Of a stretch of DNA of 42,226 bases, positions 26,293 to 36,654 are shown one piece after another; position 1 is the stretch's first letter, and each line of letters opens with the position of its first letter. The translations under genes were made by a program, and so were the position numbers. Source of the stretch: an uncultured archaeon (GTDB lineage Archaea > Asgardarchaeota > Thorarchaeia > Thorarchaeales > Thorarchaeaceae); NCBI GenBank assembly GCA_964473825.1, contig CAYYQL010000022.1, positions 1 to 42,226 on the forward strand, read 5' to 3'. The notes under the pieces were generated by a model. That model was given only the letters and a program-made list of their open reading frames with translations, did no database searches and was not told the origin of the DNA.

Positions 26293-27399
26293 TCATCGAA
26301 TTCTTTCACCCATACCATCCAATACGCAACTGGCTCTAATGACAAGGTCGGCAATCACCAATGCCGCCAATCCTTCTACCGCGGGTAGAGCCCTTGGGAC
26401 AATGGAAGGGTCATGGCGCCCTTGGATGCCAATAGTCGTTTCTTTATTGGTCTTTAGATTGACAGTGGTCTGAGATCGGTTGATAGATGGTGTCGGTTTG
26501 AATGCTAGACGGAATACTATTGGCTGACCATTGGATATACCACCTAGGATTCCTCCTGCATCATTCTTGAGCAATACCACCTTTCGGCCTTTCATTGCAA
26601 AAGGGTCGTTATTCTCAGAGCCAAGCATCGCCGCCCCCAAGAAGCCAGAACCGAATTCAATCCCCTTAACTCCGGGTATAGAAAACATTGCGTGGCTCAT
26701 CACACTCTCAACGGAATCGAAGAACGGCTCGCCGATACCTATTGGAACATCCAGAACCCGGCACTCGACTATGCCGCCGACAGAATCTCCCAGGCGTTGG
26801 GTCCTCGCAATCTCCTCTTTCATTTTGGCAACCGCACGAGAATCTGCACACCTTATTTCGTTGGTGTATACATGTTTCTTGATCTCTCGGTCAGTGATTT
26901 GCCTTTCAACCCTTATCTTTCCCACTTGAACTACGTGTGCAACGACTTCGATTCCAAGGCCCACAAGCAATTGCTTGGCGATGCTACCGGCGGCTACGAT
27001 GGGTGCTGTCATTCTTCCTGAGAACACTCCACTTCCTCGGTAGTCGTTGTATGCATCATATTTGATGCGAGCAGTGTAATCTGCTGTGCCTGGTCGGGGC
27101 GTATCCTTGAAAGCCTCGTAGTTGGATGAATCAACGTCGGTATTCGGAATCATCATGACTAGCGGTGCCTGCGTAGTCTTCCCTCGAAAGAGCCCACTTA
27201 ATACAGACACACGGTCTTCTTCGTTTCTCGTAGATGTGACAGTGCTCTGTCCCGGTCGCCGAGTATCCAGGTCTTGTTGCACCTTGTTTAGATTAATCTC
27301 GACGCCCGGTGGGCATCCATCTATGACCACTCCAACGCAGTGGCCATGGGACTCTCCGAATATATGGATCCTGAAAGCTTCTCCAAACGTGAATGTCAT
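26293..27399 (-). CDS. aroC: Chorismate synthase
   Basis: FGESHG, RRPG, PRPG, DSVGG, FKPTPSI and GRHDP. Confidence 0.96.
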   Translation of the reverse strand: MTFTFGEAFRIHIFGESHGHCVGVVIDGCPPGVEINLNKVQQDLDTRRPGQSTVTSTRNEEDRVSVLSGLFRGKTTQAPLVMMIPNTDVDSSNYEAFKDTPRPGTADYTARIKYDAYNDYRGSGVFSGRMTAPIVAAGSIAKQLLVGLGIEVVAHVVQVGKIRVERQITDREIKKHVYTNEIRCADSRAVAKMKEEIARTQRLGDSVGGIVECRVLDVPIGIGEPFFDSVESVMSHAMFSIPGVKGIEFGSGFLGAAMLGSENNDPFAMKGRKVVLLKNDAGGILGGISNGQPIVFRLAFKPTPSINRSQTTVNLKTNKETTIGIQGRHDPSIVPRALPAVEGLAALVIADLVIRASCVLDGMGERIR

Positions 27400-28715
27400 G
27401 CTATTCCTCCTGTAGGCTGTTCTTTGCCAAGGAGCTGAATTTCAGCTCCCAATCTTCTGACGTCTCTGATGAAGTTGGGATAGCTCTTCTTGATGCTTTC
27501 CGCACCTCTTATCGTGGTTTCTCCCTCAGCAACCACCCCGGCAAGGATACAGGTCATTGCAATTCGGTGGTCCTCATGAGCACACAGCGTGTCTCCGATT
27601 AGTCGAGTCGGTCCCTTGATATCAAGTGTGTCCCCTCTCACGGTGATGTCTGCCCCCATCTTTGCGAGTTCTACCGTTGAGGAGATGAGCCGATCGCTTT
27701 CTTTGTGACGTAGTCTTCCTGCGTTATAGATGTGAGTTGTGCCGCTAGCCTGTGTTGCTATCAGAGTCAATACTGGAACGAGATCGGGAATATGACTTGC
27801 ATCGATGCTGCAAGCCCGTAAATTGGACTTTTCGACCCTCACTCCCTCCTGAACTATTCTAACTGAAGCACCCATTTTCTTCAATATGCTCGCGATTTCG
27901 GCATCTCCCTGAATAGAACCCCTTCTTAGCCCGCTCACTACCACATCTCCTGAAAGAGCTCCGGTAGCCATCAAGAATGATGCAGATGAATAGTCACCTT
28001 CCACATGGAATTCAGTTGAATGGTACTCTTGCTTCCCTTGTACTTCGATACATCTCCAATCGGATTGAACTTCGGCAGACACTCCAAACTGAGCCATGAC
28101 CTCAATGGTCATACCCACGTAGTCCTTCGACTCAAGCTCGGTTGTAATTGTCAGCGTCGAGTTTCCACTTGCTTTGGAGCAGGCGAAAAGAAGACCTGAG
28201 ATGTACTGCGAAGACACATTTCCTTCAATAGAAACAGGTCCTCCTGTCAAGGTTCCTCCTTGGACTTCAACGGGTGGGCGATCGTTTCGATGGATCGACT
28301 TTGCCTTAATGCCTAGTTGACGTAAGGCCATGAGAAGACCCTCGATTGGCCTCCTGACAAGACTCTCATTACCTGTCAGAATACATCTGCCCTGCGTCAA
28401 GGATGAGAGTGCCGTGAACAGTCTGAGCGTCGTTCCCGAACCACGGCAGTCCATCTCTTCATCGGGTGTTCGAAGTTGAATCGGTCCTGTGATTCTAATG
28501 TCTGAGCCCCGGTCAATTCTTGCACCGAGCATCTGAGCGACATCAAGTGTTGCTTCGGTGTCATCGCAGTAGAGCGGGTTCCTGATACGTGTGGTATCAG
28601 AAGAGAGAAGCCCACATATGATAGCTCTGTGGGTGCAGCTTTTCGATGGTGGCGCACACACGGTACCGACAGTTTCGGACTTCTTAACAATGACCTTCAG
28701 AGGCCCAACCTCCAT
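27396..28715 (-). CDS. aroA: EPSP synthase
   Basis: PPSKS.THR, SGTT.R, SSQY.SG, DYSSA, LRHKESDR, DHRIAM and KSYPNF. Confidence 0.96.
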   Translation of the reverse strand: MEVGPLKVIVKKSETVGTVCAPPSKSCTHRAIICGLLSSDTTRIRNPLYCDDTEATLDVAQMLGARIDRGSDIRITGPIQLRTPDEEMDCRGSGTTLRLFTALSSLTQGRCILTGNESLVRRPIEGLLMALRQLGIKAKSIHRNDRPPVEVQGGTLTGGPVSIEGNVSSQYISGLLFACSKASGNSTLTITTELESKDYVGMTIEVMAQFGVSAEVQSDWRCIEVQGKQEYHSTEFHVEGDYSSASFLMATGALSGDVVVSGLRRGSIQGDAEIASILKKMGASVRIVQEGVRVEKSNLRACSIDASHIPDLVPVLTLIATQASGTTHIYNAGRLRHKESDRLISSTVELAKMGADITVRGDTLDIKGPTRLIGDTLCAHEDHRIAMTCILAGVVAEGETTIRGAESIKKSYPNFIRDVRRLGAEIQLLGKEQPTGGIA

Positions 28716-29221
28716 CGAATGAGTCTAGCGGCCTCGGTAGCGGTGACCGAGTCTGTTGAGATCTCGATGCTCTTAGCCAAATTGTATCCGCTGTTCCTTT
28801 CCGCAAGAAGGACCTCCAATCGGTGCTTCAGCGTGTTCTGTTCATGAACGAGGAGAGGTCTCGTTTCAATTGGTTGAATCCTCTTGATAATAGTCTCAAC
28901 AGAAGCAGTCAACAGCACAACACGTGTGTGTCTTCTTATCGTTTCAGCGCTAGAGGGGTTCAGTAGTGCTCCGCCACCAAAGCTTATGACACACGAGCGT
29001 TTTCTGCATACTTCTGTTACCACTCTCGCCTCGATTTCTCGAAAGTATCTCTCACCTGAGTGTGAGAAAATGCTGGCAACATCCTTCCCTTCTCCAATTT
29101 CAATCATCTCGTCAGTATCTATGAACTCTCTTCGGAGATTGCTTGCTAGCGCCTTACCCACAGTAGTCTTTCCTGTACCCATGAACCCGATGAGCCCAAT
29201 ACTCAGCTCAGCGTTCAGCAT
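28697..29221 (-). CDS. aroK: Shikimate kinase (bacterial NMP-kinase type)
   Basis: GFMGTGKTTVG, DTD, GERYFREIE, SFGGG and RPLL. Confidence 0.94.
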   Translation of the reverse strand: MLNAELSIGLIGFMGTGKTTVGKALASNLRREFIDTDEMIEIGEGKDVASIFSHSGERYFREIEARVVTEVCRKRSCVISFGGGALLNPSSAETIRRHTRVVLLTASVETIIKRIQPIETRPLLVHEQNTLKHRLEVLLAERNSGYNLAKSIEISTDSVTATEAARLIRWRLGL

Positions 29222-30069
29222 CCATTCCTCCCTTGGAGCGCTCTCTGAACGGTCTTCCTCATCACTTCTATAGGAGCTTTCTTTCCAGTCCAGATTTCAA
29301 AAGATGTAGCTCCTTGATACACGAACATGTTCTCCCCACTAATCGTATGACATCCAGTTTCCTTAGCCTCTCCGAGGAGACGAGTGTGGATTGGGTTATA
29401 GACCAAGTCCATGACGGTTTGAGTGTTCTTGAGAACGGATTTCGGAATAGGTGTCCGGTCGATTGAGTGACCTCTCATTCCAATAGGAGTGCAGTTCACA
29501 AGCAGTGCTGATGACCGAGACCTCTTCACAATGGATTGTAAGTCATGATAATCGAACTCAATTCCATACTTACTAACAACCAAATCTGCCAGTCTTCTGG
29601 CTTTGGTCATCGATCTGGCAAAGACTGTGACCTCCCGAATTCCCAATTTTGAAAGTCCTATCAATACTGACTTTGCTGCTCCTCCCGAACCAACGACAGT
29701 TGCCCTTTCGCCCTTTACGGGTACTTCAGACTCCATAATCGACCTCATGAAGCCCGGGATATCGGTATTGCATCCTGTGACCGTCCCATTGTCAAGAAAG
29801 ACGGTATTGACACAACCCGCTGACATTGCATCGTCATGTAGAATTGCCAGATAATTGAGGATTGCCGATTTGTGTGGCATTGTGACATTAGCTCCGTGTA
29901 TCTTACCATCCACAATCGCCTTAACGAGGAGCGACAATCTGTTTTTCTTCATTGGACATGCACCATACTCAAATTCATGAGAAAGTCCGGCCGCCGCGAA
30001 TGCGGCATTGTGCATCAGAGGGCTAAGTGAGTGCTCCAGAGGATATCCTACAACAACATATCTTTTCAC
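29215..30069 (-). CDS. aroE: Shikimate dehydrogenase
   Basis: HSLSPLMHN, NVTMPHK, NTD, GSGGAA, NCTPIGM and DLVYNP. Confidence 0.96.
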   Translation of the reverse strand: MKRYVVVGYPLEHSLSPLMHNAAFAAAGLSHEFEYGACPMKKNRLSLLVKAIVDGKIHGANVTMPHKSAILNYLAILHDDAMSAGCVNTVFLDNGTVTGCNTDIPGFMRSIMESEVPVKGERATVVGSGGAAKSVLIGLSKLGIREVTVFARSMTKARRLADLVVSKYGIEFDYHDLQSIVKRSRSSALLVNCTPIGMRGHSIDRTPIPKSVLKNTQTVMDLVYNPIHTRLLGEAKETGCHTISGENMFVYQGATSFEIWTGKKAPIEVMRKTVQRALQGRNGC

Positions 30070-30743
30070 GAGAGAGCCTCCAAAATGAGTTTCATCTGGG
30101 TGAGAGTGAGTTGCCCCGGAGCCGCCTCTTGGCCGTCGTCCATGGCCACATACATAAATGGGGCACCAAGGAACAGCGCACAGAGCCGAGTTATCCTTCC
30201 GAGCTCGCCCATGGAGAAAGCTATGAGTTCCTGCCCCCCTCTCCGTCTGAGAGTATACAGTTGCATCGTTCTACGGCAATCATCCACGGAGTTTGGGGTA
30301 GTAACAATCTTGACTATGTCTGCTTTCTTAGATGAGGTCTGGTGATACATCTTGGTAAGCTCGGGGAATTCAGGAGTGAATCTATGGTAGTGCTTTGAAA
30401 CAATCAACTTACACCAAGAAGTTTCGGCCGATTCCTGAACCATGTGAAAGAGAGAACGAGGAGTTTCTATTTCGATGTCAACATATGCAGCACCAGCACT
30501 TATTCCATCCAACAGGAGGGCCACCCGTTCGTCCTCAGAGCCTTTGAAGCAGCCACCATTCAAAACAGATCGGCAGGTCACCAAAATCGGGATTTCTGTT
30601 GCATCGTATATCTCATCCAGAGGTTCATTCTTGCTCATGAAATCCAGCCGGTGTTCGATGAGATTGGCATGACACTCACTCACGAACTTCAGACATTCCG
30701 AGAAACTTCTTCCTGTCATTGACACACAGAGATTTGTCTTCAT
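30066..30743 (-). CDS. aroD: Type I 3-dehydroquinate dehydratase
   Basis: EHRLD, TCR..GG, YVDIE, DIVKIV, MGELG..TR and APGQ. Confidence 0.93.
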   Translation of the reverse strand: MKTNLCVSMTGRSFSECLKFVSECHANLIEHRLDFMSKNEPLDEIYDATEIPILVTCRSVLNGGCFKGSEDERVALLLDGISAGAAYVDIEIETPRSLFHMVQESAETSWCKLIVSKHYHRFTPEFPELTKMYHQTSSKKADIVKIVTTPNSVDDCRRTMQLYTLRRRGGQELIAFSMGELGRITRLCALFLGAPFMYVAMDDGQEAAPGQLTLTQMKLILEALS

Positions 30744-30752
30744 CTGAGTGTT

Positions 30753-31838
30753 CTACTCCTTCGGCGACCTTCTGGTCAACGTCTTACTTGCCATCGGTAC
30801 GGTCTGGCATCTTTCGTCTAGGAAACCACTATCCTGCTCAGTCACACTGATCCCTCTCTTGACCATCTTCATGAAGTGACGAAACATCGCGGGTGTCAGT
30901 GATTGAGGCCCATCTACTAGGGCATTCTCGGGATCTGGGTGAACCTCTATCAAGATACCATCCGCACCTACTGCCAGCCCGGCCTTGGCAAGAGGGGTGA
31001 CTATGTGTCGTTTTCCTGCCGCATGGCTTGGATCTACGATGAGTGGAAGATGTGTGAGTCTTCTCAGCTCTGGAATTGCACCAAGGTCTAGGGTGTATCT
31101 CGTGTGCTGGTTGTAGGTTCTAACACCTCTTTCACATAGTATGACTCTACTGTTCCCTTCTGCCATCAGATACTCCGCAGCAGACAGGAGCTCTGTTAGT
31201 GTGGCCCACATGCCACGTTTGAGCAGGACTGGCTTACAGGACCTGCCAGCTCGTTTTAGAAGAGAGTAGTTCTGCATATTCCTAGCACCAATCTGGATAA
31301 TATCTACTACTTCCTCAACACGGTCGAAGGTCTCTACATCAACAGCTTCAGATACAATCGGCAGGCCAGTCCGTCGCCGAGCTTCTGAAAGAAAGCGCAG
31401 CCCTACAACACCTAGGCCTTGAAATGAGTATGGAGAGGTACGCGGCTTGTAAGCTCCTCCACGGAGTATATCTCCTCCCGCATCCTTGATCAGTTCAGCG
31501 GCATCTGTGATCTGTTCAAGAGATTCGACACCACACGGTCCAGCCAGAATTACAGGTCTGCTTCCACCAATCTCAACATCGCCTACTTCGATCACGGTCT
31601 TGTCGGGATGCGCCTCGAGGTCAGCCAGTCTATACGGCTTGGTAACCCGAATGACTTCCATTACTCCCGGCAAGCCCATGAACCGACTTGCATCTTCAGC
31701 TCTGATGTCTCCCTTAACGTTGATTACCGTGCGATGTACACCAGGATTTGGTTGCCCCGTATATCCGAGCTTCTCAATCATCTGTAGTACGTTGTCTATT
31801 TCTTCTTCTGTTGCGTGTGAATAAAGAATCACTAACAT
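30753..31838 (-). CDS. aroF: DAHP synthase, type I-beta, with N-terminal regulatory domain
   Basis: [40 protein letters not shown] and DGPQSL. Confidence 0.95.
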
Positions 31839-32920
31839 CTCTTATGTCTCCTTTCTAAAAATGTAAAACGAGTTGAATCGATGGTTGTCATCTTGGCCTT
31901 TCCTAACTCTACAAGTAGTGGGACCGCGACGCGGCCATGGCGTATCTTCTTATCTTGTCTTATTGCTAGTTCTAGCTCATGCCTGCTGACTACCGATGGG
32001 ATCTCCACAGGCAGTTCGAATGCGGACAAGGTTGTAAGGATGAAATCAAGCGAATCAAGGTCAAGCAAGCCGAGTCGTGCCGCAAGCCTAGCCTCTTCGG
32101 CGATTCCGATAGCAACTGCGAATCCGTGTGGAATCGCGTAGCCTGAGCAGGTTTCAACTGCATGACCGATTGTGTGACCGTAGTTGAGAATCTCCCGCTT
32201 TCCGCTCTCCTCTCTCTCATCTCCCTCGATTACCCGAGCCTTAACCCTCAGACATCTCTCGACAATTGTGGCGAGTACTTCAGGGTCTTTCGAGAGTATC
32301 TCTTCTCTCTTGCCTAAGAGCAGGTCCAGAAGGTCTCTGTCCATGCTCACACCGTACTTGATTACCTCTGCGAGCCCATTCCTGAATTGGTGGGTCGGGA
32401 GGGTTTCAAGGGTACATGTATCTGCAATCACCAAATGTGGCTGATAGAATGTTCCGACAAGATTCTTGCCAGCAGGTAAGTTGAGTCCGGTCTTTCCGCC
32501 TATGGCAGAATCTACCTGTGACAGGAGCGTAGTAGGAACCTGCATCAGATACATTCCGCGCTTGAACGTTGATGCAACAAAACCGGCCAAGTCGCCAATG
32601 ACACCTCCTCCAAGTGCAACGATGATGTCAGAACGTGTTGCGGTGTTCTTGGTTAGGAATCCGTAAATCTCGCTTGCCGTACTGATAGACTTCGCCGCCT
32701 CTCCCTCATTCACAGTGATTACGGATGACTGAATGCCCACTTCATCTATTCCTCCTGATATAGGCGCAAGAAGAAGATCAGCAACTGTGTTATCAGTCAC
32801 GATGAATGCTCTCTGGGAAACACCAGCAAGTATCTTGCCCACTTCGTGGAGCAACTCTTCTCCTATTGTGACTTGATAGGTTCTGCTGCTAGTCCTTATC
32901 TCGAACTCCGAGCGTATCAT
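31832..32920 (-). CDS. aroB: 3-dehydroquinate synthase
   Basis: GGGVIGDLAGF, PTTLLSQVDSAIGGKT, KNLVGTFYQP, LNYGHTIGHAVE and DKK. Confidence 0.96.
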   Translation of the reverse strand: MIRSEFEIRTSSRTYQVTIGEELLHEVGKILAGVSQRAFIVTDNTVADLLLAPISGGIDEVGIQSSVITVNEGEAAKSISTASEIYGFLTKNTATRSDIIVALGGGVIGDLAGFVASTFKRGMYLMQVPTTLLSQVDSAIGGKTGLNLPAGKNLVGTFYQPHLVIADTCTLETLPTHQFRNGLAEVIKYGVSMDRDLLDLLLGKREEILSKDPEVLATIVERCLRVKARVIEGDEREESGKREILNYGHTIGHAVETCSGYAIPHGFAVAIGIAEEARLAARLGLLDLDSLDFILTTLSAFELPVEIPSVVSRHELELAIRQDKKIRHGRVAVPLLVELGKAKMTTIDSTRFTFLERRHKRC

Positions 32921-33801
32921 GGACCCAACTCCGGTGAAAGCCTTCGGTCGAGCATGCCCAAGAGCTGGTACATCTCCTCGTACTTCTCGGCGAGATCGAT
33001 TACTTCTCCAAAATCTGCTTTGATTCCACTGCAGAACTTCTTGAAGTCGGCTCCTTCATCCAACAACGCCCTCATTCCTGAGGTCAATTCCCTCTGAAAG
33101 TTCTGGAGAACCCCCACTACATGCGGGTTGTGTGAGTGAAGTTCTTCATGGAGACGGCAGGAATTGAACATTACACTACCTGCCAGCATCAGCTGCACTC
33201 TGAAGGTAGTCCCGCCCAACATCTGAAGGTGTCGTATGTCTTTGTTCTGAAGAACAGATGCTAAGATCAGGTTCACGAAATAGGGCAGAGATATCGTGAA
33301 AGCCATTGCTTTGTCATGTTCTTCAACTGGGATAACGAAGGTTTCGTACTCAGGGAATATCTCTGATGCAGTTTCTCTTTCCTTGACCTCATCAAAGACT
33401 GGGATCACTGCCATCTTCTTTCTCAGGGACTTGGCTCCTTCTCCGAATAGTGGATGAAGACACAATGGGCTAACATCGGTCCGACCAAGGTTCTGTAGAA
33501 TATCATAGATTCCATGCTTGATTGATGATATCTCACACAGAACTGCATTTGTCTTCATGCAGGATACGACCTCTTGGATCACCTGAGTTGTCAGGCTCAT
33601 CGGTACTGCGATGATGACAACATCTGCGTTGGATACCGCTTGGCTGTTTGATAGTGCAGATTCAACCCCGCTTCTCTGACAGAGTTTCTTGAGGGCGGCT
33701 ACGTTCGGATCTGACACAACTAGGTCATTGCTCAAGGAGTGTAGGTCTCCGACGAGAAGCGTTCCCATCCTTCCTGCCCCTCCCAATACTGCAATCTTCA
33801 T
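32917..33801 (-). CDS. tyrA: Prephenate/arogenate dehydrogenase
   Basis: Rossmann motif GGAGRMG, SSIK, HPLFG and EEHDKAM, plus operon context. Confidence 0.9.
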   Translation of the reverse strand: MKIAVLGGAGRMGTLLVGDLHSLSNDLVVSDPNVAALKKLCQRSGVESALSNSQAVSNADVVIIAVPMSLTTQVIQEVVSCMKTNAVLCEISSIKHGIYDILQNLGRTDVSPLCLHPLFGEGAKSLRKKMAVIPVFDEVKERETASEIFPEYETFVIPVEEHDKAMAFTISLPYFVNLILASVLQNKDIRHLQMLGGTTFRVQLMLAGSVMFNSCRLHEELHSHNPHVVGVLQNFQRELTSGMRALLDEGADFKKFCSGIKADFGEVIDLAEKYEEMYQLLGMLDRRLSPELGP

Positions 33802-35195
33802 GCAAGCAACTCCTTCATGGCTTCTATTGCCGTCACTAGAACACTCTCAGGTTGACACACTGACATCCTGAAGAACTCCGCATAGTCTTTGCCAAACACA
33901 GAACCAGGAGTGATGGATATACCGGCCTCAGAGAGAAGTCGCGCAGAGAATTCGGTTCCGTCGATGCCGTTGCTGGATAGGCGTGGAAAGAGGTATAAGC
34001 CCCCCTCTGGCACAACAAAAGAGAAGGGCAGGTTTCGCATGAGTGCCGAAGAGACTTCTATTCTCTTTCTGACAGTCCTCGCATACTCTCTCTGTTCGCG
34101 TTGACAGGTAAGTGCTGCAAGACCAGCACATTGAATGAACTCTGAAACGCTTGTAAGGCACAGATTCTGAAGCTTTGACATCCTTTCTATCGACTGGATG
34201 TCTGAAACTGCAAAACCGAGTCGAAAACCTGTCATTCCATAGCTCTTGGAAAATGAGTTTAGATAGACAGATTGCCCCTCTACGAACTCGAGTATGCTGG
34301 GTGGAGATTTCTGGCAGAAATCCCCGTAGACCTCATCGCTCAGGACAGCCAATTCATTGGCTACTGCAATATCTACCAGCTCGCTGAGCCAAGGCTCCTT
34401 TACTACTTTGCCCGTAGGGTTTGCCGGTGAATTGAGAATTATCATCCTAGTGTTGCTGCGGATTTCCTCGTCAAGTCTGCTCAAATCTGGAATCCAGTCA
34501 TCTTCTAGACGCGCAGGAACGTGGACCGGCAAAGCGCCTGCTGCGGTCACCAAATCATCATAGGCTGGATATGATGGATCGAAAATAATGACTTCGTCTC
34601 CCGGTCTTACAATTGTCATCACACTGAGGAACAGAGCAGATCTTCCCCCTGCTGTAACAATTACTTCTTCCGGAGAAATCTGTGTGTTATGTTCACGGTT
34701 GAGGTACTGCGCAATGCTGTTACGTAATTCTAAGAGCCCTGCCGTTGCAGTATATCGCGTGCGACCCTGCAGTAACGCGTGGGCCATGAATTCAACTACT
34801 TCTGGGGGTGGGCCGAAATCAGGCTCACCGATCTCGAGATGAACTACATGGCGACCACTGTTCTCCAATTCCCTTGCTCTAATCCATGTAGTATATGCAG
34901 ATGTATCTGCCAACGACTGAGGAGTCTGATCCTGGACGCTCTTTGCTTCTGCTATTAAGAGGTTGAGAATCCTCATTGCAAACGCAGAATCATGATTCTC
35001 TTTTTCACAAAGGCGAATCACGGATGCCCTTAGATTCTCTTCGACTGCATGGTTCACCACGGGAACATCCATGCGATATTTCATCTTGCCCACAGCTCTA
35101 GCGAGATTCGTCCGATTGCCTGCAAGCGAAACGATGTCGAGAGTAATCGACTGAATCTGAGCTCTTAGCTCCTCTAGCTGACTTTCCTCAGACAC
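33798..35195 (-). CDS. Chorismate mutase (AroQ)-like domain fused to a class I/II PLP aminotransferase
   Basis: N-terminal LEELRAQI..R..LA..VG.MK..V...E, the CM_2 pattern. C-terminal GEPDF, NSPANPTG, SDEVY and SFSKSYGMTGFRLG. Confidence 0.88.
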   Translation of the reverse strand: MSEESQLEELRAQIQSITLDIVSLAGNRTNLARAVGKMKYRMDVPVVNHAVEENLRASVIRLCEKENHDSAFAMRILNLLIAEAKSVQDQTPQSLADTSAYTTWIRARELENSGRHVVHLEIGEPDFGPPPEVVEFMAHALLQGRTRYTATAGLLELRNSIAQYLNREHNTQISPEEVIVTAGGRSALFLSVMTIVRPGDEVIIFDPSYPAYDDLVTAAGALPVHVPARLEDDWIPDLSRLDEEIRSNTRMIILNSPANPTGKVVKEPWLSELVDIAVANELAVLSDEVYGDFCQKSPPSILEFVEGQSVYLNSFSKSYGMTGFRLGFAVSDIQSIERMSKLQNLCLTSVSEFIQCAGLAALTCQREQREYARTVRKRIEVSSALMRNLPFSFVVPEGGLYLFPRLSSNGIDGTEFSARLLSEAGISITPGSVFGKDYAEFFRMSVCQPESVLVTAIEAMKELLA

Positions 35196-35315
35196 GTTCA
35201 GCTTTCACCCCTCCAATGTTGGCCCATCAATCCTTGACGAGAGACAAAGTCAACTATTGGATCGCGCGCAGTCTTCAGAAATTCGGGATATGGAGTTTTG
35301 ACTTGTAGAAACATA

Positions 35316-35371
35316 AGACACCACCAAAACGAGGGAGCCGGGGCCGACGCCCGACATCCTAAGTAGCGTCT
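35316..35371 (-). promoter_or_regulatory. Candidate attenuator RNA (alternative hairpins, GC-rich stem, U-rich tail)
   Basis: Stem GGAUGUCGGGC-GUCG-GCCCCGGCUCC (35359-35334), then CUCGUUUU. A competing pairing is GACGCU (35370-35365) with GGCGUC (35351-35346). Confidence 0.55.
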
Positions 35372-35375
35372 CGAT

Positions 35376-35456
35376 TTAGAGATAATAACTATAATAGCCA
35401 CTATAGCGACAGGTGTTTCCTGCCGTACAGATGTTCGTGGCTATTTCTCTGTTCAT
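35376..35456 (-). CDS. Putative Tyr-rich leader peptide of the aro/tyr operon
   Basis: ATG..TAA encodes MNREIATNICTAGNTCRYSGYYSYYL, with 5 Tyr among the last 9 codons. An in-frame GTG at 35468 is an alternative start. Confidence 0.7.
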   Translation of the reverse strand: MNREIATNICTAGNTCRYSGYYSYYL

Positions 35457-35492
35457 CGAAACGTTCACTGTCTTGGGCCAGCATCTTCGGGC

Positions 35493-35507
35493 TTAATATA
35501 CTTTGTC
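35493..35507 (-). promoter_or_regulatory. BRE/TATA promoter of the aro operon leader
   Basis: Minus strand reads GACAAAG-TATATTAA, about 25 nt upstream of GTG 35468. Confidence 0.55.
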
Positions 35508-35865
35508 AGAATCGTGCGGAATATCCTCTGTTCTGCCTGAATGGTATCTTCTTCGCGCTGCTGCGAACGCATCGAGCTAGGCTTTGGCGTGGTCGATACT
35601 GCTACTCTCTAGTATTATTCGGGAGCACAGAGTCATCAAATAGGCCAAATGGTGGAAGTCTGGTACGTTGTGAAAGACATGGCAATGACTCTCATTCCAT
35701 GCAATTCCAAAGCTAAGATGACGAATCCAGTGACATTACCTGTGAAACAACTCCGAGTGGCTCCCCTGTCTCTGCTAGTTCCTTATTCCTCTTCAAGTGT
35801 TCCCCTTGTTACGTACTACCTTTCCGGCGATTTGTTCTTATGCAGGACTGATACTGCAATCCTGG

Positions 35866-36522
35866 ATGGCTGTGTCTATATTGCTGGAGAGATTCGAAGC
35901 ACCAGAACCGCAGTCGAAAAGAATTGCAGTCCTGGCGGTATTTACGTCGATTTCAATGCTCCTTGAGGTTTTTCCGGTTCCTGGAATTACGGACCTGAAA
36001 CTGGTCCCTCAGGTGCCAAGCTTCACAATTGACTGGACTGGAATCCCCCTCTCATTCATTCTCCTTGGACTCGGCCTTACCTACTCGTTGACCGCGGTAG
36101 TCGGGGTGGGAATCGCAATCGGATATCGGAATCCCGTTGGTGCCCTTTTCAAGGTGGCATCCGAGACTCTTACGGTCTTGGGTATGTCTGTTGGTTTCTC
36201 CGTCCATAGGGCACTCCGCAAAAGACTCCCGAAATTGTCAAAGACCCGAACCCTCCTTGTCTTGGCTGGAGGCATGTTGTTCAGAATGGTCGGCATGTAT
36301 GTCATCAACATAGCACTGCTGCCGGTGTTTGTCGGTCTTCCGGAGGCTACGGCAATCACTGTATCCGGTATACTTGTTCCGTGGAATGGGGTTCAGGCCC
36401 TCATCAACATACTCGGTGCCTGGGTCCTCATGGCACTGTTACCGAGAGAACTATTATTGCAGGCAGGGCTCAGCCTGCCTGCGGGCGAAGGCGATCAAAT
36501 TGACTTCAGCGATGAAGGGTGA
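35866..36522 (+). CDS. Membrane protein, probable stand-alone ECF S component
   Basis: RIAVLAVFTSISMLLE, FTIDWTGIP..LLGLG and PWNGVQALIN resemble RibU-type S components. About 6 TM helices. The start codon is uncertain. Confidence 0.65.
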   Translation: MAVSILLERFEAPEPQSKRIAVLAVFTSISMLLEVFPVPGITDLKLVPQVPSFTIDWTGIPLSFILLGLGLTYSLTAVVGVGIAIGYRNPVGALFKVASETLTVLGMSVGFSVHRALRKRLPKLSKTRTLLVLAGGMLFRMVGMYVINIALLPVFVGLPEATAITVSGILVPWNGVQALINILGAWVLMALLPRELLLQAGLSLPAGEGDQIDFSDEG

Positions 36523-36654
36523 TTCAACCTGCGTAGTAGCGTGGTTATGCAACCAGAAGAGGGACTGGCTCGGACACAGCTAATGGAACCTTCCCATCGA
36601 GAACCAGTGGCGTTGTTATTAGTTCGCCTGCTGCACGCGGTATCGTTTACCGAC

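Follow-up and report, generated by a model that had tools for sequence, protein, structure and literature searches.

The closest published system to the one described here is the class of leaderless poly-cysteine short open reading frames (ORFs) of mycobacteria, the Ms5788A class, in which a stalled ribosome blocks the structure that hides the ribosome-binding site belonging to the next gene (Canestrari et al., bioRxiv 10.1101/834739). The locus examined here lies on the minus strand of a 42,226-nucleotide (nt) stretch of DNA from an uncultured archaeon of the family Thorarchaeaceae (contig CAYYQL010000022.1 of assembly GCA_964473825.1, positions 1 to 42,226, hereafter the window), where a leader of about 270 nt containing a tyrosine-rich frame, ORF1, precedes a nine-gene operon for tyrosine synthesis. 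As with the poly-Cys frames, ORF1 stands at the predicted transcript start and is probably leaderless, its putative regulatory codons are clustered in its 3′-terminal part, a helix conceals the downstream site, and the proposed control acts on translation of the cognate biosynthetic operon. The wiring differs, however. In mycobacteria the Cys codons pair with the Shine-Dalgarno (SD) sequence and the stalled ribosome unmasks it directly, whereas here the sequence that pairs with the hidden site (the anti-site) lies past the stop codon and would be taken up through pairing with the 5′ end of ORF1. In addition, control would act on the site of a bridging upstream open reading frame (uORF2) rather than on that of the enzyme gene; the organism is an archaeon, and Tyr would be the residue sensed.

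The leader shares with Escherichia coli trpL, pheL and hisL the placement of product codons between the promoter and the first gene, the mutually exclusive helices around the stop codon, and a segment for the “on” helix that a ribosome on the stop would cover. A further bacterial case is aroR of Corynebacterium glutamicum, with Phe-Tyr-Phe ahead of aroF in the operon for 3-deoxy-D-arabino-heptulosonate 7-phosphate (DAHP) synthase (PMC11802643). Unlike any of these four, the present leader has no conserved intrinsic terminator, and its output would be sequestration of a ribosome-binding site; unlike classical attenuators, it would find the partner of its “on” helix upstream of the stalled ribosome, it matches no Rfam leader family, and it has a probable leaderless start behind an archaeal promoter with TATA box and B recognition element (BRE). 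Translational attenuation of ermC and cat offers another parallel, as there too the accessibility of a downstream SD depends on a ribosome stalled in a leader frame, although the stalling signal here would be a hungry codon instead of a drug-bound exit tunnel. Finally, gene pairs of Haloferax hand ribosomes on where stop and start overlap or lie 2 nt apart (Huber et al. 2019, PMC6728339; PMC10666635), as proposed below, except that the coupling frame here is a non-conserved spacer ORF and not a protein gene. In the literature searched, leader-peptide attenuation was described only for bacteria, and no archaeal precedent was found.

On balance, we lean modestly toward the view that this leader is a ribosome-read tyrosine sensor controlling translation of the operon and not termination of its transcription. 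The fuller proposition, that one Asgard family uses true leader-peptide attenuation in which a leaderless Tyr sensor gates a bridging frame that relays ribosomes into the operon, is in our judgement evenly poised between true and false. If it holds, Archaea possess ribosome-mediated amino-acid sensing, with two uORFs in a form that recalls uORF control in eukaryotes; such sensing then also works with the transcription and translation of archaea, and is wired unlike the enterobacterial and mycobacterial types, through a long-range anti-sequestrator helix and a relay uORF. The leader is compact and each of its parts can be mutated, which makes the proposal directly testable.

A conserved tyrosine-rich frame ahead of a tyrosine operon

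The features at the start of the leader, and the operon behind it, are as follows.

35494..35506, minus strand: archaeal-type promoter, ACAAAG (BRE-like) plus TATATTA, together ACAAAGTATATTA
35376..35468, minus strand: leader frame ORF1, 30 codons plus TAA, VNVSMNREIATNICTAGNTCRYSGYYSYYL and stop, probably leaderless
35382..35405, minus strand: cluster of Tyr codons in the ORF1 tail, TAT AGT GGC TAT TAT AGT TAT TAT
26293..35195, minus strand: DAHP-to-tyrosine operon of nine genes that overlap or abut, assigned through Pfam

The Tyr cluster is followed by CTC and TAA, giving a peptide that ends in RYSGYYSYYL and a frame in which TAT makes up five of the nine last codons. Genome-wide, Tyr accounts for 3.4% of codons in the genome of the window (G000), and across its 3.27 Mb ORF1 is the sole intergenic short frame with at least five Tyr in nine codons. 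Eight relatives with a full-length fusion gene at the head of the operon were seen by eye to have the same upstream arrangement, and a covariance model made from the leaders of seven of them was run on 86 genomes of the family. The leader element was detected in 23 of these genomes, spread over 6 of 16 genera and always as a single copy, and the same model, applied with stricter filters, gave no match among 125 genomes sampled from the phylum's other families. All but one of the 23 copies keep the RTG start position (R, A or G), a length of 29-32 codons, the same stop position (TAA, TAG or TGA) and the tail pattern (Y/F)SG-x-YYSY. The frame is open in 22/22 intact relatives, in every one of which the two alternative frames are interrupted by stop codons, and insertions and deletions among relatives come in multiples of three. 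The encoded peptide is far less constant, with 10-20 of 30 codons differing between genera, chiefly through non-synonymous changes, and with entropies of 0.78, 0.78 and 0.80 at the three codon positions, that is, no codon periodicity. A frame, a length and a Tyr tail that are kept while the peptide is not are what would be expected of a regulatory leader frame. The Tyr-rich frame is a genuine feature and not a product of chance, and, as judged from the conservation of the frame, ORF1 is likely to be translated.

A shorter version of ORF1, from ATG 35456 to the TAA at 35378-35376, translates as MNREIATNICTAGNTCRYSGYYSYYL. This ATG is replaced by AAG or ACT in two genera, while relatives have ATG or GTG at the site equivalent to an in-frame GTG at 35468. 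As the ATG is lost in two genera and the RTG is kept, the start of ORF1 is assigned to GTG 35468, giving 30 codons. On the minus strand, TATATTA occupies 35500-35494 and GTG 35468 comes 32 nt later; in 22/22 intact relatives the motif (A/C)AA(G/C)TATAWWAG lies 32-33 nt ahead of the RTG, which sits in a YA/RTG context, and the sequence of the spacer is variable. This constant spacing predicts a transcript start at the RTG itself, and the ORF1 transcript is therefore probably leaderless, starting at GTG 35468. The assembly encodes a TATA-binding protein (TBP), which identifies the host as an archaeon; it contains no 16S rRNA. Upstream of the promoter, over about 1.1 kb (35508-36654), only plus-strand frames without a Pfam match were observed (35649-35966 and 35797-36522).

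In order, Pfam assigns the operon genes to a chorismate mutase-aminotransferase fusion, TyrA (prephenate dehydrogenase), AroB, DAHP synthase with a ferredoxin-like domain, AroD (type I dehydroquinase), AroE (shikimate dehydrogenase), AroK (P-loop shikimate kinase), AroA (5-enolpyruvylshikimate 3-phosphate synthase) and AroC (chorismate synthase). No member of the prephenate dehydratase (PDT) or anthranilate synthase (TrpE) families was found in G000, which is 95.7% complete, or in the other two genomes of its genus. Because both branches are absent, tyrosine is the only amino-acid product of the pathway in G000, matching the codon enriched in ORF1. Chorismate synthase, taken as marker for the shikimate pathway, occurs in 25 of the 86 family genomes (61 are without it); 20 of the 25 carry the leader, and two more have divergent leaders seen by eye. 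PDT was found in 9 of the 86 and TrpE in 5, with PDT limited to genera g3 and g6 plus one fragment in g7. Aromatic prototrophy thus appears patchy in the family and, in the genus of the window, limited to tyrosine. A Phe codon is present in the ORF1 tail of 5 of 8 PDT-positive genomes and of 1 of 14 others (leaders L036, L038, L039, L045 and L050 were noted), for which a one-sided Fisher test calculated by hand gives about 0.01 on only two or three independent events; this is suggestive, and the residues sensed may track the products of the pathway. The search of the genes neighbouring the operon found no regulator gene.

The operon enzymes are of bacterial type (P-loop AroK, AroB, and type I DAHP synthase with the ferredoxin-like domain) and do not follow the usual archaeal route. 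This suggests that the operon was horizontally acquired, with the promoter and the predicted leaderless start still archaeal in type.

Across relatives, the Tyr codons of the ORF1 tail are 83 TAT to 6 TAC, against 51% TAT genome-wide. One tRNA-Tyr gene was found, with anticodon GUA, so that UAU would be read by wobble.

Much of what an initial annotation had read from the letters of the window alone was upheld by these comparisons, including the TATA box, the five Tyr codons among the last nine (all of them TAT), the archaeal host, and the nine-gene operon with chorismate mutase, TyrA and an aminotransferase, which Pfam confirmed. Its 26-codon ORF (35456-35376) was right in frame and in Tyr tail and placed the start too far downstream, the conserved start being GTG 35468; its suggestion of leaderless translation from that GTG is favored by the conserved RTG and the promoter distance. 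The conservation of frame and Tyr codons in relatives, which it had named as a check, was found in 22/23 copies, and its match of codon to end product turned out closer than claimed, as G000 is without PDT and anthranilate synthase.

Two mutually exclusive helices and a bridging frame

The remainder of the leader holds the pairing segments, a second frame and the start region of the first enzyme gene.

35455..35463, minus strand: segment Z, CGUUUCGAU, transcript nt 6-14, forming the 5′ arm of a closing helix
35393..35446, minus strand: helix P1 (AAAUAGCCAC with GUGGCUAUU) enclosing an inner hairpin, Pin
35362..35375, minus strand: segment C, of which AUCGAGACG (C′, 35375-35367) pairs with Z and GAGACGCUACU (35372-35362) pairs with the uORF2 ribosome-binding site
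35331..35360, minus strand: variable apical hairpin, at the same place in 22/22 relatives with unrelated sequences
35326..35330, minus strand: GUUUU tract, earlier taken for a terminator tail; UUGUUCUGG or UUCUUUCUGG in other genera
35312..35325, minus strand: uORF2 ribosome-binding site, GGUGGUG, spacer and AUG (35314-35312), with UGGUG and AUG invariant
35198..35314, minus strand: uORF2, 38 codons, its TGA (35200-35198) 2 nt before GTG 35195 of the first enzyme gene
35205..35214, minus strand: GGAGGGGUGA, the SD belonging to the first enzyme gene, within the last part of uORF2

Alignment of the raw leaders with MAFFT and RNAalifold recovered only the inner hairpin, owing to register shifts, and the covariance model together with an anchored duplex analysis was used instead. 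Within ORF1, P1 (AGCCAC with GUGGCU) and Pin have six pairs altered on both sides across relatives, and 81.8% of cells are paired, compared with 33-53% when the partners are slid. The Z:C′ helix was found in 22/22 relatives, with compensatory changes at nt 5, 6, 7, 11 and 14, and takes forms as different as CUCUCGA:UCGAGAG, UCUUGAC:GUCAAGA and GUUUCGA:UCGAGAC. Together, Z:C′ and P1 fold the entire ORF1 as one long hairpin.

A second hairpin follows, the basal stem of which pairs 35372-35362 with GGUGGUGUCUU (35325-35315), that is, with the invariant UGGUG and the spacer of uORF2. The GGUG of uORF2 is paired with segment C in 22/22 relatives, with covariation at +4 and at +6 to +9; the sequence and register of the anti-site differ between clades, and the flanks of GGUG covary. 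Z:C′ and this site-hiding helix have 6 nt in common in the window and 5-7 nt in the clades examined (g1, g3 and g12), and since they share nucleotides they are mutually exclusive. In the fold model the leader without a ribosome switches between two conformers of similar energy, and overall it folds into the site-hiding hairpin and a single long, irregular one. A search of Rfam, which included T-box and families of the Trp_leader and Phe_leader type, gave no match to the leader at E-values up to 10.

The hidden site belongs to uORF2, which is conserved in sequence within genera only. An equivalent frame of 25-52 codons is present in the 20 relatives in which the downstream gene start was mapped, and ends between about 12 nt upstream and about 17 nt downstream of the start of the enzyme gene. 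Experiments in Haloferax show that termination-reinitiation requires an overlap, or no more than a minimal gap, and that it is lost at distances above about 20 nt (PMC10666635). The spacing between uORF2 and the gene matches this range, and so fits a role of uORF2 in feeding ribosomes to the enzyme gene; the uORF2 AUG, in turn, lies about 60 nt past the ORF1 stop, which argues against direct reinitiation from ORF1 to uORF2. A GGAGG-type motif precedes the fusion-gene start in all relatives.

Mutually exclusive pairings near the ORF1 stop had been proposed in the initial annotation, and such pairings do exist, but the conserved pair is Z:C′ and the site-hiding helix. The GC-rich hairpin (35359-35334) and the pairing of GAGACGCUAC with GUGGUGUCUU are both in the minimum-energy fold. 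The helices it had numbered 1:2 (AGUGGC with GCUACU) and 2:3 (GACGCU with GGCGUC) are complementary in the window but by inspection have no equivalents in several genera, 1:2, which is rejected as a conserved anti-sequestrator, being missing in g12 and weak in g6, and 2:3 failing in g3. A pairing of segment 2 near 35324-35316, noted there in passing, proved to be the conserved helix that hides the GGUG and AUG of uORF2; the long-range Z:C′ helix and the bridging of uORF2 to the first enzyme gene had not been described. That earlier interpretation is partly supported, in that its sensor frame stands and its terminator mechanism does not.

Sign of control and competing explanations

The mechanism that we infer joins translation of ORF1 from a leaderless start, stalling at its Tyr codons, and a particular sign and timing of the switch. 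The transcript would begin at the GTG of ORF1, which carries its five UAU codons in its last third. When tyrosyl-tRNA is low, the first ribosome would stall on the UAU codons with Z and C′ both free, and Z:C′ would form before the uORF2 site is transcribed, so that the site would emerge unpaired and the operon would be translated. When tyrosyl-tRNA is ample, the ribosome would reach the stop, cover C′ and strip Z:C′; after its release C′ would pair with the uORF2 site, just synthesized and close by, and the operon would be off. As uORF2 ends at the start of the fusion gene, it would hand ribosomes over by termination-reinitiation, and the tightly packed later genes may be served likewise.

Each modelled ribosome blocked a stretch reaching from 15 nt upstream to 12 nt downstream of the A-site codon's first base. 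When the transcript was taken as nascent, with the uORF2 site yet to be made, a ribosome on the first or middle Tyr codon gave a Z:C′ value of about 0.9 and left 66-70% of the anti-site paired to ORF1. On the last Tyr codon it left 46% so paired, and on the stop it covered 66% of the anti-site, with 7% paired to ORF1. Under these assumptions the co-transcriptional model would give negative feedback. In the window the anti-site begins 4 nt past the ORF1 stop, and a ribosome on the last Tyr codon covers 9% of it. The idea that a ribosome stalled at Tyr masks the anti-site directly was tried for the window by widening the 3′ edge of the footprint from +12 to +18 and was rejected, as the site stayed closed.

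Several results weigh against this proposal. At equilibrium on the full leader, opening the uORF2 site cost on average 5.6 kcal/mol in the ribosome-free leader, and 6.3, 7.3 and 8.0 kcal/mol with a ribosome on the first Tyr codon, on the last Tyr codon and at the 5′ end, respectively, so that a ribosome stalled on Tyr codons slightly closes the site; in G000 and G002 the cost falls when the ribosome is on the stop. Taken at face value, these equilibrium results have the wrong sign for a biosynthetic operon. Folding with and without the ribosome, which had been suggested in the initial annotation, thus fails at equilibrium to open the uORF2 site on stalling and would yield negative feedback in the nascent model. 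The sign of feedback would rest on a kinetic argument and assumed footprints, which makes it the weakest link, and the model would require Z:C′ to pair around a parked ribosome and few queued ribosomes to lie on Z. In front of the first enzyme gene stands a strong SD of its own. Only in one genus (g12) was it detectably masked, masking by the body of uORF2 being the same as in shuffled controls in all the others, and dependence of the gene on uORF2 is therefore putative. Codon choice is a further point, as tail Ser codons are AGY in 48/55 cases, mid-frame Tyr is always UAC and tail Tyr is nearly always UAU, and in some clades UAUAGY repeats or CUAUAG palindromes form local hairpins. The biases toward AGY for Ser and UAU for Tyr point to constraints at the RNA level, and part of the Tyr richness could accordingly be structural.

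In a competing explanation, the two-state RNA would be worked by a trans-acting factor, with translation of ORF1 incidental or modulatory; the factor could be a metabolite (as in a riboswitch), an RNA-binding protein (TRAP- or PyrR-like) or uncharged tRNA-Tyr (T-box-like). The ORF1 region is indeed a covarying structure, its codons are fixed by position (UAU in the tail, UAC mid-frame, AGY for Ser) in a manner that suggests selection on nucleotides, and the ribosome-free leader already toggles between conformers of similar energy. A factor, however, would not need the kept RTG at the 5′ end, the open frame of fixed length, the fixed stop, or insertions and deletions in threes, and the long irregular hairpin is not a multi-helix junction with conserved unpaired cores. 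Of the T-box features (Stem I with specifier loop, T-box sequence, UGGN bulge), the Rfam search up to an E-value of 10 gave no sign, T-box included, and the fold differs; only two to four UAG triplets with irregular spacing are present, where a TRAP site has about 9-11 (G/U)AG triplets spaced 2-3 nt apart; and the operon neighbourhood is without a regulator gene. A trans-acting factor is for these reasons considered unlikely. Still less probable, at a very low level, is that ORF1 encodes a functional small peptide, for example the precursor of a Tyr-derived product, and is no sensor. Its C-terminal motif YSG-YYSY is kept, but there is no conservation outside the tail, changes are mostly non-synonymous with no third-position bias, it is the P1 arm AGUGG that encodes the motif's S and G, no neighbouring maturase was found, and the element decays upon loss of the operon.

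Two further explanations were weighed. In classical transcription attenuation, the GC hairpin and U tract (35359-35326) would be a conditional terminator and a stalled ribosome would lead to an anti-terminator. Oligo-U terminates archaeal RNA polymerase, in the genus of the window the hairpin is followed by UCGUUUU, or by UUUUCGUUUU in G002, and GACGCU is able to pair with GGCGUC in the window. Yet the U-run CUCGUUUU, which had been read as the tail of a terminator, is not kept outside genus g1, being missing in genera g3, g6, g12 and g2, where UUGUUCUGG or UUCUUUCUGG is found instead; in several genomes the hairpin is 8-10 nt away from the pyrimidine tract, and this tract forms the 3′ side of the conserved helix that hides the uORF2 site. 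Inspection revealed no equivalent of the 2:3 pairing in G001 or g3, and a terminator scan did not call the hairpin of the window. With neither the U-run nor the 1:2 and 2:3 helices conserved, termination of the bacterial type does not stand as the conserved mechanism, and we rate this explanation as distinctly improbable. In a positive relay, a ribosome that completes ORF1 and sits on its stop would melt the helix at its base and so open the uORF2 site, and translation of the operon would rise with tyrosyl-tRNA or translation capacity. This explanation draws on the equilibrium folds of G000 and G002, in which a ribosome on the stop leaves the site at its most open and one on the Tyr codons or the 5′ end leaves it closed or closes it further. 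The effect is not seen in most other clades, though, the distance of about 60 nt from the ORF1 stop to the uORF2 AUG is far past the Haloferax reinitiation range, and positive feedback on a biosynthetic pathway has no physiological rationale, which leaves the relay with a low probability. The ribosome-read tyrosine sensor acting on translation is thus the reading that we prefer.

Decayed and divergent leaders and similar short frames

One copy of the leader (L053, G084:C148, 1501-1653) is decayed: its TATA box is mutated, GAG stands where the start codon should be, its frame is broken and it has no GGUG site. Downstream of it there is no chorismate mutase-aminotransferase gene, and no chorismate synthase was found in that genome, which is 74% complete. 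With the leader decayed and the operon gone, this copy indicates that the element decays where the operon is lost.

Two divergent leaders from two further genera were missed by the covariance model, L008 in G009 (MEISRKTIALFKGKRPCYSGFYYFIL, then stop) and L009 in G008 (MRNHMLGGLDHSMVFYHSYRDHR, then stop). Both retain the two-hairpin arrangement, and both genomes also carry TrpE. In the G009 leader the anti-SD overlaps the final codons of the leader frame, and direct masking as in mycobacteria may be applicable there.

A search of genome contigs for related loci gave only an unrelated bacterial aminotransferase. In G000, a scan for other leader frames matched to their product (Trp, His, Leu, Thr, Phe and Ile) yielded no sister attenuators; its 10 candidates all precede unrelated genes (FAA hydrolase, glycosyltransferase, SAH hydrolase, nitroreductase and others) and were rejected. 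The same genome contains three near-identical copies of a short frame, VVSVVVSD(T/S/G)V, with common upstream sequence (C71:4915-4948, C74:2215-2248 and C81:2929-2962). These lie 200-360 nt ahead of a long frame of at least 120 amino acids (760 in C71), and the copies look like a repeated element or the head of a paralogous gene.

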